A stretch of 64,000 nucleotides of DNA. It comes from Deltaproteobacteria bacterium (lineage in GTDB: Bacteria; Myxococcota_A; Polyangia; Fen-1088). How positions within the stretch are numbered: position 1 is the first letter of the stretch; every line of letters begins with the position of its first letter. The notes beneath the pieces are model-generated. The model was not told the origin of the DNA, made no database searches, and saw only the letters and a program-made list of their open reading frames with translations. Below are positions 33,725-46,640 of the stretch, one piece after another. Made by a program: the position numbers and the translations under genes. The stretch is taken from NCBI GenBank assembly GCA_033763315.1, contig JANRKS010000032.1, positions 480,001 through 544,000 on the forward strand. The letters are read 5' to 3'.

Positions 33725-33740
33725 TACAAGACCTGTGCCA
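33725..33740 (-). promoter_or_regulatory. sigma54-like promoter TGGCACAGGTCTTGTA
   Basis: Strong -24 element, -12 GT variant. Confidence 0.6.
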
Positions 33741-37678: not shown

Positions 37679-39088
37679 CTAGCGAAGCTTTTCCCACAGT
37701 GTTTTGCGGGCGATGCCGAGCAGGTCAGCGGCCTTGGCGCGCTTGCCGCCGGTGGCGGTCAACGCACGGCCCAGGTATTCACGCTCGAATTCACGAACAG
37801 CCACAGCCAACGGTTTTAGTTCTCCCGAGGCGCCTTCCACGGCGGCAAACTGCGCTGAACGCGGTCGCACGGCTTCAGTGATGCTCACGGGCAGGTGATT
37901 GAAATCAATCGTCTGTCCGCCAGCGAGCACCGTCGCGTGTTCGATGGCATGTTGGAACTCACGCACGTTGCCAGGAAACTCGTATTGCTTTAGAGCCATC
38001 CACGCCGCCGGCGTCAACGTTGGCAACTCGGAGCCGGGCGGCTTAAAGCGCTCGAGCAAGTGTCGCAACAGCAGCGGCATGTCGCCGGGACGTTCGCGCA
38101 ACGGTGGCAACGGAATCTCGATGACGTTGATCCGGTAGAATAAGTCTTCGCGGAACGCGCCGGTCTTGGTCAGATCGCGCAGCGTACGGTGCGTGGCAGA
38201 AACGATTCGCACGTCCACCTTCACGGTGATGTTCGTGCCCAAGGGTTCAAACGTTCCTTCCTGTAGCACGCGCAACAGTTTTGCTTGTGCATGCAAAGGC
38301 AACTCACCGATTTCGTCCAAGAACAGCGTTCCACCATCGGCGGCTTTGAATCGCCCATCACGCTTCTTGACGGCGCCCGTAAATGCGCCACGTTCGTGGC
38401 CGAACAACTCAGCTTCGATCAGGTTCTCAGCCAGCGCGCCGCAGTTAACGGCGACGAACGGCCCCTTTGAACGCGGGGAACCTTCGTGGATCATGCGCGC
38501 CACAAGTTCTTTGCCGGTGCCGCTTTCGCCCGTGATGAGGACGGGGGCATCGCTTTGCGACACCATGCGTACCATCTCCTTCACGCGGCGGATGGGGGGC
38601 GACTCACCGACCAACGTGGTGCCGCCCGTCACCTGACCGGTGGCCAGTTGCGACCGGATCTGTTCAAGTTCGGACTTGAGTCCCAGGTGTTCGCTGATAT
38701 GCGTCAGCTGAATGAGAAGTTCTTCGATGTCGAAGGGCTTGGTCAGATAGTCGTAGGCGCCTTCCTTGAGGGCAGCCACGGCGTCAGTGACCTGGCCATA
38801 AGCCGTCATCATGATGACCTTCGTTTGAGGGGATTCACTACGCACGTGTCTTAGAAGCGATAGCCCCTCAACTTTGGGCAGTCTCACATCGGTAATCACA
38901 ACGTCGAAGACATTGTGTTCCAGTTGCCCGAGGGCCTCAGACCCATCGGCAGCCGTTTCGACCACGTATCCTGCTTCTCGCAGAGCGTCCTCAAGGACAC
39001 CTCGTAACTCAGGTTCGTCGTCAACCAATAGGATTCGCAATGATTTCCCCTGCGCTTCGGCGGGTTGAGAGAGTTTTGCTTGGGTCAT
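37679..39088 (-). CDS. NtrC-family sigma54 enhancer-binding response regulator (REC-AAA+-HTH)
   Basis: GESGTGKE, GAFTGA, LFLDEIGE, PGNVRE, Fis-type HTH; real start about ATG 39088. Confidence 0.95.
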   Translation of the reverse strand: MTQAKLSQPAEAQGKSLRILLVDDEPELRGVLEDALREAGYVVETAADGSEALGQLEHNVFDVVITDVRLPKVEGLSLLRHVRSESPQTKVIMMTAYGQVTDAVAALKEGAYDYLTKPFDIEELLIQLTHISEHLGLKSELEQIRSQLATGQVTGGTTLVGESPPIRRVKEMVRMVSQSDAPVLITGESGTGKELVARMIHEGSPRSKGPFVAVNCGALAENLIEAELFGHERGAFTGAVKKRDGRFKAADGGTLFLDEIGELPLHAQAKLLRVLQEGTFEPLGTNITVKVDVRIVSATHRTLRDLTKTGAFREDLFYRINVIEIPLPPLRERPGDMPLLLRHLLERFKPPGSELPTLTPAAWMALKQYEFPGNVREFQHAIEHATVLAGGQTIDFNHLPVSITEAVRPRSAQFAAVEGASGELKPLAVAVREFEREYLGRALTATGGKRAKAADLLGIARKTLWEKLR

Positions 39089-39180
39089 TCTGTCGGCCTC
39101 GATGATACTTTTCGGTAACGCCAGGTACCGATGTGGTAACACTCTGAATCCGTTCCGGCGCGTTTGCCGGCGATTTCTCC

Positions 39181-39196
39181 TGGCACACCGCTTGTA
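39181..39196 (+). promoter_or_regulatory. sigma54-like promoter TGGCACACCGCTTGTA
   Basis: Strong -24 element, -12 GT variant; GGTAAC twice upstream (39114, 39135). Confidence 0.6.
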
Positions 39197-39259
39197 ACTA
39201 CAAGAACCGTGCCTTTTTTCTCCCACTCCCACGTCGATGACGTCGCGCATGAGGAACGC

Positions 39260-41050
39260 GTGCCGCGTATCAGTTCCATCCGGCGTGGCCTTCTGCGTGA
39301 GACATGGCTGGCGTACGTGGTGTTTGCCGCCGCGCTTTTGATCACCGTACTTTTGACCAGCGCGTTTTTGAAGGGCGAGCAGGAGCGCCAGGCCTTGGAG
39401 GCACAGAAGCAGGCCATCGACGTTCAGAACCGCTTCGCGACGAGGATGGGTCGCAATATGACAGCGCTCGTCGGCGGCGCGGCGTTGTTTGGTGTGGATG
39501 CCCGTTTGACGCCCGCGGAATTCAGAAATTTCGCTCGCAGTTTGCAGCGCTTCGGCGCCCTTGATGGCGTTCTCGCGTTGGGCTTTTGCCCCCGCGTGAC
39601 GGCGCAAGAGCTGCCGGGGTATTGGGCAACCGTCAAACAGCGCGTGCCCGGCTTTCACGTGTGGCCCGAGGACGCTCGCGATGAGTACTTCCCTGTTGAG
39701 CTCATCGAACCGTTGACGGAGCAGAACCGTAAAGTGATTGGCTACAACATGCACGCCGAAGCCGTGCGCAAAGCAGCCGTGGAGTTCGCCAGAAAGCATG
39801 GTGAGCCCGCCGCTTCGGGACGCTTGTCGCTGTTGCAAGATCAAGGCAAACAGGGCCGCTTCGGCTTCGTAATCTATGTGCCCATTTATCAGCGCGGCGT
39901 AGAGCCGGGCTCTGCCGACGAGCGTGGCGCCGGGCTGGTGGGGTTCATCTTTGCGGCCTACCGGGCGGATGATCTTGTTGCTTGGATCCTATCCGCTGCC
40001 GAGCGCGCCACTTTCGCCGTGCAGTTGTTCACGGGGCCGAGGGACGCCGCCGAAGCGCTTTACCAAAGCCCTTTGCCTGAAGGCAGCGAGCTGATTTCAA
40101 GCCGCTCACTCGGAGTGGGCGGGCGCGATCTAACCTTGAGCCTTTACCTTAAACCACACGCGGTCTCTGCTTGGGATTCGGAGTTGATCGTCAGCGCTGC
40201 GTTGGGCGTCATCGTTAGCTTGCTGTTATTCTTGGTGCTGCGAACTCAAGTGCAGGCTCGGCTCAAGGCTGTCACAAACGCGGCTCATCTGCGCGAAGCG
40301 CGAGCGACGGCCGTGCGCAACTTGCGCGCGCGTGAAACCTTTCTGTCTGTGGCGTCGCATGAATTGAAGACGCCTTTGACCGCGTTGCAGCTGCAGGTTG
40401 ATTCGCTCGCCATGTCCTTGGCGAACGCTGCGCCCGTGGACCTTGATCGACTGCGCGCTCGCGCCGACAACATTGGCCGCCAAACAAAAAGGTTGGGGTC
40501 ACTGGTTGAGGATCTGCTGGATGTCTCGCAGGTCAGCGCCTCACCCCTATCGCTGCAGTTGGAGAACACAAGCCTTGTACCACTGATTCAAGACGTCATA
40601 GATTCATTCGCTACGGCGGCGAAGCAAGCGCACAGCGAGGTGCGGTTCGAGGCCGATGACGATGCCTTGTCCGGTATGTGGGACCGGCGACGGTTGCAGA
40701 AGGTGATCTCGACCCTGGTGTCGAACGCCATCAAATACGGTTGTGGACGTCCCATCGTGCTGACTGCCAAGCGAGAAGACGCGAACGCAGTGATCACTGT
40801 GAGCGACCATGGCATCGGCATCGCGCAAGCGGATCAAGAGCGCATCTTCGGCCGGTTTGAACGGGCCGTTTCGCCAAAGCACTTCGGCGGCATGGGCCTC
40901 GGCCTTTGGATTGCTCGCGCGATTGTGGAATCCATGGGCGGAACGATTCGCGTGGCCAGCTCACCCGGCGCGGGCGCCACCTTTGTGGTTTCGTTACCAG
41001 CAGCCTCGGCCGATTTGCAGGCCTCAGGCGATGCGATGGGCGCCGCGTAA
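39260..41050 (+). CDS. CHASE-domain sensor histidine kinase
   Basis: TM-CHASE (YFPVELIEP..NRKVIGYNM...SGRLSLLQD...FVIYVPIY)-TM, ASHELKTPL, GMGLGL; GTG 39260 with GAGGA RBS. Confidence 0.88.
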   Translation: MPRISSIRRGLLRETWLAYVVFAAALLITVLLTSAFLKGEQERQALEAQKQAIDVQNRFATRMGRNMTALVGGAALFGVDARLTPAEFRNFARSLQRFGALDGVLALGFCPRVTAQELPGYWATVKQRVPGFHVWPEDARDEYFPVELIEPLTEQNRKVIGYNMHAEAVRKAAVEFARKHGEPAASGRLSLLQDQGKQGRFGFVIYVPIYQRGVEPGSADERGAGLVGFIFAAYRADDLVAWILSAAERATFAVQLFTGPRDAAEALYQSPLPEGSELISSRSLGVGGRDLTLSLYLKPHAVSAWDSELIVSAALGVIVSLLLFLVLRTQVQARLKAVTNAAHLREARATAVRNLRARETFLSVASHELKTPLTALQLQVDSLAMSLANAAPVDLDRLRARADNIGRQTKRLGSLVEDLLDVSQVSASPLSLQLENTSLVPLIQDVIDSFATAAKQAHSEVRFEADDDALSGMWDRRRLQKVISTLVSNAIKYGCGRPIVLTAKREDANAVITVSDHGIGIAQADQERIFGRFERAVSPKHFGGMGLGLWIARAIVESMGGTIRVASSPGAGATFVVSLPAASADLQASGDAMGAA

Positions 41051-44657: not shown

Positions 44658-44673
44658 CGGCACGAATCATGCT
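44658..44673 (+). promoter_or_regulatory. sigma54-like promoter CGGCACGAATCATGCT
   Basis: GG-N10-GC; supports a start at 44702 rather than 44669. Confidence 0.7.
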
Positions 44674-44701
44674 TATTGAGCTTGGACGCAGGAGGTCCCT
44701 C

Positions 44702-45640
44702 ATGAAAGCAGTGCCAGCCAAGACGCGAAACCTTTGGGCGATTGTTTTAGCCGGCGGCAAGGGCGCTCGCATTTCGCCCTTGAGTCGCAAGCTTATTGGG
44801 CAAGAGGTGCCGAAGCAGTACCTGCCTTTGTTGAGCTCGAAACGCAGCCTTTTGCAAGAAACCCAGGATCGCTTGGCGTCGTTGGTGCCGCAGGAGCGCA
44901 CCGTGGTGGTGGTGGCGAAAGAATGGGCTTCGTTGGCCGCCAAGCAGCTGCAAGAATACCCTGGTGTGCGCATTGTGCCCCAGCCTGCTGATCGCGGCAC
45001 CACAGCCGGGATCATGTTGCCGCTGTGCCACGTGTTGGCGCATGATCCTCAGGCCGAGGTGCTCATTTCACCGTCGGACCATCACATCGAGCGCCCCGAA
45101 GCCTTGTATGAAGCTGTCGCGCAGATTCGCCAAACAATTCAAGAGTCGCCGCGTGACATCGGCATCTTGGGCATCAAGGCCGAGCACCCCGCGACTGATC
45201 TGGGGTGGATTGAGCCTGGCCAACCTGTGCAGAATTGCCGACGCATCAAAGGGTTTATAGAGAAGCCCGACAGCGAAACGGCGCGCGCGCTTTATAAGGC
45301 ACAGGCCCTATGGAATACCATGATCTTAATGGGCCGCGCCTCGTCTCTTTGGGCCACCGTGTTGCGTGGCAATGAAACGATTCCCTCTTTGTTCGAGCCT
45401 TACATTCAGCAGTTGGTGCAATCGCCATTGTCCGCTGTGGGCTTTGCTGATCGCATTTACGAGCAGATGCCCAACGTTGATTTCAGTTCGGGCGTGCTTG
45501 AGAGGGCCGACAACTTGTTTGTGGCAACCTTAGAGAGGGCAGGGTGGTTCGATTGTGGAACCCCTGAGCGCTTGTTCGACTGGCTACGGCGGACACCAAG
45601 CAGCGACAGTCCGTTTCGGCGTTTGATGGATGCCGCATAG
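44702..45640 (+). CDS. Mannose-1-phosphate guanylyltransferase-like nucleotidyltransferase
   Basis: VLAGGKGAR, PKQY, PSDH, FIEKP, WNT, DFS..VL, W.DCG; RBS AGGAGG. Confidence 0.85.
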   Translation: MKAVPAKTRNLWAIVLAGGKGARISPLSRKLIGQEVPKQYLPLLSSKRSLLQETQDRLASLVPQERTVVVVAKEWASLAAKQLQEYPGVRIVPQPADRGTTAGIMLPLCHVLAHDPQAEVLISPSDHHIERPEALYEAVAQIRQTIQESPRDIGILGIKAEHPATDLGWIEPGQPVQNCRRIKGFIEKPDSETARALYKAQALWNTMILMGRASSLWATVLRGNETIPSLFEPYIQQLVQSPLSAVGFADRIYEQMPNVDFSSGVLERADNLFVATLERAGWFDCGTPERLFDWLRRTPSSDSPFRRLMDAA

Positions 45641-45649
45641 CCAAAGACG

Positions 45650-45963
45650 TGTGCGTCCTCCGCTACAGGTGTCACCACTTCGTAGCGTCAGGAGCTCTAA
45701 GCGCAGTCGCTGACCATTCCACGCGCAGGCTCATCTGGAGGGGCCCATCCCCCCGACAAAACACTGGGCCGTCGCCTGCGTCATCGTGTTTTCGAAAACG
45801 CTGGACGCCGAGGCGGTGCACCCCGGCGTCCTCACTCAAACCCGTCGCCTCTACCCCACCGCCAAACTCCCACGCCACCCAATCCCTTTACACCGCCCAG
45901 CCACACCTACCGTACCCCTGCACCTAACCCCCAGTCCTCCCCATCACCATCCCCGTTTCGTGC
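45650..45963 (-). ncRNA. Candidate sigma54-driven G-rich structured small RNA
   Basis: Promoter 45974-45989(-) points into a segment with no recognisable gene, a G-rich 5' half and nested hairpins in the 3' half; ends are estimates. Confidence 0.4.
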
Positions 45964-45973
45964 CCTCCTAATA

Positions 45974-45989
45974 TTCAAGTCACATGCCA
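45974..45989 (-). promoter_or_regulatory. sigma54-like promoter TGGCATGTGACTTGAA
   Basis: Same GA-variant form as the sites at 20912, 28524 and 52964. Confidence 0.6.
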
Positions 45990-46099
45990 ACGCAACGCCC
46001 GCCGTTTGGGTCGACAAAAGCCGCTCATTCAACGGAGCGCCGTCCCAAAGCCGTTACGCGCATCGTGGTTCGGTAACGTCGTGCACCTCCGCAGATCGT

Positions 46100-46115
46100 C
46101 GGCATACGCCCTGCA
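46100..46115 (+). promoter_or_regulatory. sigma54-like promoter CGGCATACGCCCTGCA
   Basis: GG-N10-GC upstream of tspO-tamA-tamB. Confidence 0.55.
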
Positions 46116-46133
46116 CATACGATTGCCGAGGCA

Positions 46134-46640
46134 ATGAAGACAGTGAACAACACATCGGAAACAACTCGCAAACGCAGCTGGGTTTGGGGCGCAGCGGCCG
46201 TGGTGGGAGCCACCATCGGAGCTGCTGCTTTGGGTGCAACAACGTCTCGCCCCGGCTTGTGGTATCACCAGTTAAGGAAGCCGGTGGGAACACCACCCAA
46301 CGCCGCTTTTGGTCCGGTGTGGACTTTGCTCTACATGGGCATCGCCTATGCCGGTGTCCGTTTGGTGAGAGCCCCCGCCTCACCTGAGCGCAGCAAAGCG
46401 CTCGCGTGGTGGAGCACACAGCTCGCGCTCAACGCCGCTTGGTCGCCAGTGTTCTTCGGCGTGAAACAGCCAGCGGCCGCGATGGTGATCATCGGTGCTT
46501 TGGTGCCTGCGATTGCCGCCACAACAAATGCCGCCCGTAAGGTGGATGGTCCCAGCGCCGTGTTGATGTTGCCGTACTTGGCGTGGACCTCGTACGCAAC
46601 GTATTTGAACGCCGGCATCTTGCTGAAGAACCACGTCTAG
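46134..46640 (+). CDS. tspO: TspO/MBR tryptophan-rich sensory protein
   Basis: WYHQLRKP..TPP...FGPVWTLLY, QLALNAAWSPVFF, LPYLAW. Confidence 0.93.
   Translation: MKTVNNTSETTRKRSWVWGAAAVVGATIGAAALGATTSRPGLWYHQLRKPVGTPPNAAFGPVWTLLYMGIAYAGVRLVRAPASPERSKALAWWSTQLALNAAWSPVFFGVKQPAAAMVIIGALVPAIAATTNAARKVDGPSAVLMLPYLAWTSYATYLNAGILLKNHV

Follow-up and report, generated by a model that had tools for sequence, protein, structure and literature searches.

What could a sigma54-type promoter be doing where no recognisable gene stands behind it? The question is raised by a 64,000-nt stretch of DNA from a Deltaproteobacteria bacterium (GTDB lineage Myxococcota_A; Polyangia; Fen-1088; assembly GCA_033763315.1, contig JANRKS010000032.1, positions 480,001 to 544,000, or G000:C32:480001-544000 in our numbering), hereafter called the window, in which an earlier note made from the letters alone had described an orphan promoter firing on the minus strand into a G-rich, structured non-coding segment (45650-45989), proposed to be a regulatory small RNA (sRNA). 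The segment lies in a 493-bp spacer between a nucleotidyl-transferase gene (44669-45640, plus strand) and tspO (46134-46640, plus strand), and the genome it belongs to (G000, 7.63 Mb) is 90.85% complete. The LeuRS encoded in the window shares 66-69% identity with that of metagenome-assembled genomes labelled Myxococcales/Polyangia, so that the source is probably an uncultured member of Myxococcota. Our preferred answer, to which we assign a probability of roughly 0.42, is a trans-acting non-coding RNA (ncRNA) with an open, G-rich body that would depend on sigma54 and an enhancer-binding protein and would act, by the favoured mechanism, through pairing. That a real, discrete ncRNA gene is present we consider probable, and that such a gene, if real, depends on sigma54 and an activator is slightly more probable still, while pairing as its mode of action, set against a bulk or sponge mode, comes close to an even bet and is favoured only narrowly. 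The parts of the predicted unit are given below, together with their counterparts in L012, a syntenic metagenome contig.

45973-45989, minus strand: -24/-12 promoter TGGCATGTGACTTGAAT of sigma54 type with the island variant of the -12 element, CTTGAAT; one of 8 sites in the window and one of 23 in the genome.
46053-46077, read on the minus strand: GTWAC pair resembling an upstream activating sequence (UAS), GTTACCG at -88 and CGTAACGG at -68; half-sites 46077-46073 and 46057-46053.
45935-45963, minus strand: predicted 5' end and conserved 5' block CACGAAACGGGGATGGTG; the start near 45963 is placed by sigma54 geometry, about 12 nt past the -12 element.
45832-45934, minus strand: G-rich, C-poor body, predicted to be open, without an open reading frame (ORF); 54% G and 9% C over 132 nt when the 5' block is included.
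45803-45831, minus strand: terminal GC hairpin of 13 pairs (-26.8 kcal/mol), a candidate terminator or 3'-end stabiliser.
45795-45798, minus strand: U4 tract AGCGUUUUCG, 4 nt past the stem; U4 after a 5-nt spacer in L012.
45641-45794: spacer outside the unit, up to the convergent nucleotidyl-transferase gene; 39% identity to L012, minus-strand fold z -0.38.

In the sigma54 consensus (TGGCAC-N5-TTGCW), GG at -24 is separated by 10 nt from GC at -12. The site as read, TGGCATGTGACTTGAA(T) at 45989-45973 on the minus strand, fits it in its -24 block (TGGCAT) and in its spacing, and the C is missing from its -12 block, TTGA. The strict pattern TGGCAY-N4-CTTGWW was found at 23 sites in the 7.63-Mb genome, 8 of which fall within the 64-kb window vs. 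about 0.19 expected; the looser TGGCAY-N5-TTG gave 13 sites in the window vs. 1.94 expected, a number reached in 0 of 100 shuffles. Since the -12 blocks of this island of promoters read TTGA or TTGT rather than TTGC, they represent a variant of the consensus, and a search for the variant CTTGWA in four related genomes returned 21 sites vs. 1 control match, so that, judging from these motifs, the variant is an element used across the family. The remaining seven strict sites in the window (20466, 20912, 28524, 33740 on the minus strand, 39181, 52964, and 56095) each have an ORF start 6-56 nt downstream. The earlier description, a promoter of the island class without a gene behind it, holds up. 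The genome also encodes rpoN (Sigma54_DBD, 219 bits), and an enhancer-binding protein with the architecture REC-Sigma54_activat-HTH_8 is encoded at 37679-39844 on the minus strand, 6 kb from the promoter, with a CHASE kinase nearby.

Sites for such an activator were considered as well. At least two GTWAC motifs between -200 and -20 are present at 6 of the 8 island promoters, including the one studied here, while the chance of this in a random 180-bp window is 0.0071 (20,000 windows). The flanks at our promoter resemble those of the other island sites, (C/G)GGTWAC(C/G)G, and the distances of the pair (-68/-88) suit a promoter on the minus strand; no GTWAC pairs were seen at the three promoter sites examined outside the window.

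The composition of the DNA behind the promoter is exceptional. The plus strand at 45841-45960 contains 67 C and 11 G, which confirms the extreme G-skew claimed for the 5' half of the RNA; all other coordinates and counts given earlier (the promoter-like site, base counts, G runs, and hairpin arms) also proved correct on recheck. Only 5 regions in the genome reach a difference of at least 50 between G and C per 120 nt, and 2 of these are poly-G contig ends. Among 1862 loose -24/-12-like sites in the genome (mean 1.6, sd 10.5), ours has the highest downstream excess of G over C, 63. The second-highest site, C11:123078, was considered as another unit and rejected, the DNA downstream being coding (the Gly-rich linker of a cytochrome c). 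Two side observations concern skewed DNA elsewhere in this genome. An intergenic segment outside the window (G000:C32:602169-602335) holds 97 G and 30 C in 167 nt after the end of a gene and is followed by a hairpin-like inverted repeat, with no -24/-12 site seen upstream of it; poly-G/poly-C runs at the contig ends G000:C8:190788-191077 and C19:12-237 look like sequencing or assembly artefacts.

The earlier note had asked for conservation in relatives with the same tspO-adjacent region, and L012 (TspO 79% identical, gene order identical) provided it, with the promoter, the region of the GTWAC pair and the first hairpin all retained. Identity to L012 varies along the spacer as follows.

tspO-proximal 44 bp: 73%
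UAS region: 58%
Spacer: 34%
Promoter: 76%
5' block: 71%
Body: 42%, with indels
Hairpin plus tail: 71%
Region 3' of the hairpin: 39%

At the aligned place L012 reads TGGCACGCACCTTGAAT, with the -24/-12 blocks kept and 3 of 4 spacer bases changed, and it also retains the CACGATGC spacer together with the first GTWAC half-site. Identity reaches 71% over 45972-45935, compared with 34-42% in the neighbouring unconstrained segments, and the L012 body keeps its G-richness (49% G, 8% C). A DNA contig of run X2 from a close strain (155 nt, 45806-45962) differs by 3 substitutions and a 2-nt deletion, all located in the body (C>U, A>G, and A>U in the RNA sense), which is weak evidence at a depth of 2-3, where errors are possible; a second X2 contig of 151 nt spans 45994-46142, and 45963-45993, containing the promoter, lies outside both. 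Farther away, a DNA search of 40 relatives returned only three matches of 35-46 nt (E 1e-5 to 9e-4), all of them at loci that are not comparable. The tspO loci of 6 GTDB relatives (TspO 47-56% identical) showed no skewed tract and no divergent promoter, and relatives of the nucleotidyl-transferase (24-47% identical) showed no synteny.

The same comparison sets the extent of the unit. Because conservation with L012 stops at the hairpin 45831-45803 and its U4 tract, the unit is predicted to end near 45795, so that the RNA unit, as drawn from the alignment, is about 170 nt long (45963 to ~45795) and does not occupy 45650-45989; the reach to 45650 was therefore given up. The hairpin, with arms GGACGCCG/CGGCGTCC, folds better than all of 200 shuffles (z -3.92, 0/200), and L012 has the same two arms around a different loop. 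Further 3' structures had been proposed, and a palindrome at 45799-45788 and nested arms at 45780-45724 are indeed present in the DNA; the nested arms (45724-45780), however, are unconserved and not above shuffles, the minus strand of 45641-45800 folding no better than shuffled sequence (z -0.38), so that only the first of the hairpins stands. Nor can the transcript as a whole be called structured, as had been claimed, since whole-transcript folds gave z +0.42 and +0.26 against shuffles. The hairpin and U4 may together serve as an intrinsic terminator.

Further units were sought through the promoter in two genomes of the same genus (G001 and G002). Among their 13 CTTGWAK sites, three are followed by a G excess of at least 33 over the next 150 nt, and these are exactly the three CTTGAAT sites, L274 (80 G/21 C), L277 (81/25), and L269 (62/29); at the remaining 10 the excess is at most 23 and an ORF lies behind. 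Across the family, CTTGAAT occurs at 20 sites in 12 of 89 genomes, and at least 87 G with at most 34 C in 200 nt follow only our own site, L274, L277, and L269. The bodies of these three are 253-342 nt long with 47-55% G, 14-18% C and stops in all frames, and they fold no better than shuffles (z +0.96, +0.18, and +0.28), while their end hairpins do (z -6.5, -3.6, and -7.8); with L012 included, all four units outside the window end in equivalent hairpins, z -3.6 to -7.8. L274 lies about 4 kb from a block of Pkinase, REC-AAA+-HTH activator and CHASE-kinase genes that is orthologous to the one in the window. L277 and its orthologue L269 each have a DndB/ParB-like gene upstream and share the promoter, a GTAACC site and a hairpin with one compensatory change from G-C to A-U, with many indels in the body. 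The own genome's G6PD locus carries no unit like L269. In the five units together, the bodies measure 132, 166, 253, 288, and 342 nt, with 47-55% G and 10-26 runs of three or more G each. The architecture of promoter, G-rich tract and hairpin thus recurs in same-genus genomes, and the related units point to what may be a new type of regulatory RNA. As for neighbours of this second type of unit, the DndB/GmrSD_N (ParB-like) gene stands directly before it (L277 1633-2787, minus strand; L269 231-1373, plus strand) and has no counterpart in G000. Outside the genus, L291 (G091, oriented position 1501) has a CTTGAAT followed by 89 G and 46 C in 200 nt and also by a 211-aa ORF, and is ambiguous.

Two explanations would do without a functional RNA, and both are touched by this recurrence. 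In the first, the transcript would be a by-product of cis-antisense or convergent transcription against the TreY-like/NTP-transferase operon (G6PD in G002), with the hairpin terminating in both directions. In the window, in L012 and in L269 (G6PD), unit and neighbour gene do converge, and the hairpin, being a palindrome, could form in transcripts of both strands; on the plus strand, the 3' region that contains it folds with z -1.8. However, the gene next to L274 (a PAS kinase) is co-directional, the extreme G-richness over 130-340 nt is left unexplained, and the conserved hairpin, if it terminates, would halt the antisense RNA before it reaches the gene; we regard this explanation as improbable. 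Marginally less probable still is a relic, that is, a sigma54 promoter which lost its gene and was then followed by filler of odd composition without function. It would account for the lack of an ORF, of an Rfam family and of a detectable target, and for the narrow distribution, yet the promoter, UAS and hairpin were kept while the flanking spacer diverged like unaligned DNA, three genomes carry the architecture, at two or more loci that are not homologous, and the skew, which neutral decay would erase, is unmatched in the genome once assembly artefacts are set aside.

The RNA most likely codes for no protein, as far as its frames can tell. All three minus-strand frames are interrupted by stops, and the ATG after the 5' block opens only 8 codons. 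A long leader for a 68-aa ORF with a GTG start (45878-45672) had been offered as the alternative, and we extended it to a leader for, or gene of, any small glycine- or tryptophan-rich protein. In its favour, both strands accommodate ORFs of 41-92 aa, and ORFs of 45-88 aa, which look like chance, exist in L012, L274, and L269. The 68-aa ORF was rejected as a gene: it gave no BLASTP alignment with the L012 ORF at the same place, which is in another frame relative to the shared hairpin, and identity 3' of the hairpin is only 39%, so that it is not conserved in L012. In L012, TTG and CTT stand in place of the window's two ATGs, and the alignment requires 1-nt indels. The five units share no ORF, with stops in every frame of all five and frame-breaking indels between close relatives, and Pfam assigned no family to the 68-, 92- and 61-aa ORFs. 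A small protein is therefore very unlikely.

Just as unlikely, in our view, is that the C-rich plus strand is the functional one, as a Rho-loading (rut) tract that would keep transcription of the upstream operon from running on into tspO. With 56% C and 9% G over 120 nt and no structure, the plus strand has a textbook rut composition, and rut sites are conserved in composition only. Nevertheless, searches for the Rho RNA-binding domain (Rho_RNA_bind, PF07497) came up empty in G000, in the two genomes of the same genus (96% and 95% complete) and in 14 of 15 further genomes of the family that were searched, and a promoter with UAS that points into the G-rich strand in 5 of 5 units would go unexplained, as would L274, which has no convergent gene. 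The same domain was found in 1 of those 15 genomes and in 8 of 10 other families of the class, a distribution that hints at a lineage-wide loss of Rho.

The preferred reading, that of a pairing ncRNA, can be put as a chain of steps. The activated response-regulator-type enhancer-binding protein (37679-39844, minus strand) would bind the GTWAC pair at -68/-88 and open sigma54-RNA polymerase at TGGCAT-N4-CTTGAAT; transcription would start near 45963 and end at or just past the 13-bp hairpin 45831-45803 with its U4, giving an RNA of about 170 nt whose first ~130 nt would be single-stranded, non-coding, and 54% G with 9% C. The RNA would then be trans-acting and give a stress regulon its post-transcriptional arm; among the members of this regulon would be the BON, DUF2383, CBS, Transgly_assoc, trehalose-type amylase, TspO, and PLD genes, and the RNA's open G/U-rich tract would pair with C-rich or pyrimidine-rich stretches of mRNAs in the fashion of GcvB R1 and without Hfq. 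We infer transcription, both RNA ends, dependence on this activator, trans action, and pairing alike from the DNA itself.

Several results weigh against this reading. The -12 element is TTGA where the canonical one is TTGC, the U tract is short and 4-5 nt away from the stem, and a scan for consensus terminators made no call. A covariance model (R1) built from the window and L012, covering the hairpin only, matched 0 of 88 other genomes of the family, and 100 further loci gave two matches with E 0.5-0.7. The family amounts to 5 units in 4 kin genomes, which are not independent; what unites these units is architecture and composition rather than sequence that could be aligned, and a conserved seed can no longer be seen past the closest relative. 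In the own genome, neither paralogues nor long complements were detected (E >= 1.5), and pairing with the tspO 5' region was not above shuffles (28/40 and 32/40 as good). The 9 nt over which the local G-rich RNA could pair perfectly with the C-rich start of the CHASE-kinase mRNA did not significantly exceed what the composition yields in G000 (P 0.10) or in G001 (P 0.22), the duplex energies being matched by 23/200 and 13/200 shuffles. Finally, conservation in composition only would fit an RNA acting by a bulk property at least as well as a pairing RNA. A pattern scan of genome contigs was also tried and discarded, as it produced at least 119 chance matches across phyla with 0 confirmed by R1. 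It may be added that the 5' end of the CHASE-kinase mRNA is C/U-rich and G-poor behind a sigma54-type promoter both in the window (39205-39240, plus strand) and in G001 (L302 9475-9500, plus strand).

In the bulk alternative, the same sigma54-driven ncRNA would work as a decoy for a G-binding protein or as a G-quadruplex array, stabilised by K+ and possibly binding heme or porphyrin. Composition is kept while sequence and length (132-342 nt) turn over, as is typical of sponge RNAs, the bodies combine 10-26 G3+ runs with a lack of Watson-Crick structure, and G001 has two copies. On the other hand, no word is repeated above what composition yields (G3+, G4+, and GGA in the five units, P 0.06-0.93), and tspO, to which a heme or porphyrin role might be tied, is adjacent in the window and L012 only and not in L274, L277, and L269. 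Of the suggested G-quadruplex, only the pattern stands, in that four runs of at least four C on the plus strand, G in the RNA (45951-45954, 45939-45942, 45928-45932, and 45915-45918; loops of 8, 6, and 9 nt), do contain the RNA G-quadruplex pattern of at least 4 tracts of 3 or more G with short loops; they are no more than 54% G yields alone, as the G runs of the body match mononucleotide shuffles (G3+ 10 vs. 9.5, P 0.50; G4+ 5 vs. 5.0, P 0.63). A sponge for CsrA or Hfq, or a Shine-Dalgarno mimic, had also been suggested and is unlikely on two counts: GGA is at or below expectation (5, 4, 9, 9, and 11 in the five units vs. 6.3, 6.4, 9.4, 11.3, and 13.1), and CsrA (PF02599), Hfq (PF17209), and ProQ (PF04352) were not found in G000 (90.85% complete). 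One source states that no Hfq homologue was detected in myxobacterial genomes (PMC5568312). Taken as a whole, the bulk alternative is doubtful, though the strongest of the competing explanations.

Considerably less likely, but still ahead of a cis-antisense by-product, is that these are stress-induced RNAs acting through their guanine content itself, as RNA G-quadruplex arrays or as persistent R-loops on the C-rich template. A rise in K+ during osmotic or desiccation stress would form the arrays or R-loops, which would then sequester proteins, heme or porphyrin (next to TspO), or C-rich RNA. RNA G-quadruplex motifs are reported to be underrepresented in bacteria, and the units would, if this reading were true, be a selected exception.

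The surroundings are in keeping with a stress response. By Pfam, the island holds BON proteins, trehalose-type amylases, hemerythrin, TspO, a Ser/Thr kinase, and the REC-AAA+-HTH activator, and a general-stress-like regulon appears to be run by sigma54 through the variant -12 element (CTTGWA) and GTWAC sites, with BON, trehalose-type enzymes, and hemerythrin nearby. The ORFs behind the seven other strict promoters, 5 of which could be assigned to Pfam families, encode DUF2383, a CBS protein, a CHASE histidine kinase, Transgly_assoc, PLD/VTT, and two small proteins without a Pfam family. One product without a family in the Pfam search is the 75-aa protein behind the promoter at 33740, which we take to be ElaB-like. 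At the tspO end of the spacer, the 18-mer GTCGGCATACGCCCTGCA (46098-46115, plus strand), located 18 nt upstream of the ATG of tspO, is unchanged in L012 between flanks that have diverged, and it reads as a canonical GG-N10-GC sigma54 promoter (cGGCAT-N5-CTGCA); because this sigma54-like 18-mer precedes tspO, a single control region may drive tspO in one direction and the G-rich RNA in the other. Sites of the form GGCAC-N4-CTTGTAT were noticed upstream of the tspO homologues in G010 and G015.

How does the proposed RNA compare with known ones? The Infernal check against Rfam covariance models placed it in no family, Pxr, Qrr, CrcZ, and GcvB included: nothing in the window reached the gathering score, apart from which two snoRNA chance matches had E 4-8, and nothing relevant was found in L012, L274, L277, and L269. 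Among promoters, the closest parallel is that of Qrr1-5 of Vibrio, where, as described in PMC11407668, a receiver-domain enhancer-binding protein (LuxO~P), upstream sites and sigma54 drive several sRNAs per genome. The UAS pair, the -24/-12 site, the nearby REC-AAA+-HTH activator and the two units in G001 suggest a similar promoter logic. Qrr RNAs, however, are about 100 nt long, form stem-loops, carry a conserved seed and require Hfq, unlike the present body, which is predicted to be unstructured, is 47-55% G, has no genus-wide seed and no Rfam match, and belongs to a genome where Hfq was not found. Pxr of Myxococcus and the Cystobacterineae is described as an intergenic sRNA with a sigma54 promoter beside the gene of a sigma54 activator (PMC5568312), about 108 nt long with three stem-loops, of which SL1 and SL2 are conserved (PMC5568312; PMC5684412); in contrast, the RNA proposed here would have one terminal hairpin and an open G-rich body, and no relevant Rfam match was obtained at E <= 10.

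For the preferred mechanism the model is GcvB, whose unstructured, GU-rich R1 tract is described as pairing with C/A-rich target sites near ribosome-binding sites (PMC3879156). The open G/U-rich tract of the present RNA would pair likewise, yet R1 is short and highly conserved in sequence, whereas the present bodies are 130-340 nt, G-rich throughout and unconserved in sequence. GcvB is, moreover, Hfq-dependent and not known to be driven by sigma54. Variable length and rapid turnover of sequence recall sponges such as CsrB, RsmZ, and CrcZ. Protein-sponge RNAs carry their function in many short repeats, and CrcZ depends on sigma54 and CbrB; here, neither GGA (4-11 vs. 6.3-13.1 expected) nor any other word is enriched, and neither CsrA nor Hfq was found in the genome. 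As for promoters that fire into a G-rich tract, the closest analogue is the pilE G4-associated sRNA of Neisseria gonorrhoeae, for which transcription in cis is described as permitting the G-rich DNA strand to form the G4 (PMC3547852). The pilE element consists of a single short G4 motif linked to pilin recombination, while the present tract extends over 130-340 nt, is followed by a conserved hairpin, lies in a stress regulon and has no recombination system nearby.

A comparable G-rich, sigma54-driven RNA was not found in the open-access literature. If expressed, this one would supply an uncultured, Polyangia-like lineage, in which Hfq, ProQ, CsrA, and Rho were not found (own genome 90.85% complete), with an sRNA arm of its general-stress-like sigma54 regulon, and it would pose the question of which partner binds an open, G-rich RNA. 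Known sigma54-dependent sRNAs (Qrr, Pxr, CrcZ, and GlmY) are folded and conserved in sequence; what is conserved here is the promoter, the enhancer sites, the hairpin at the 3' end and a base content of some 50% G with 8-18% C, around a body whose sequence and length turn over fast.

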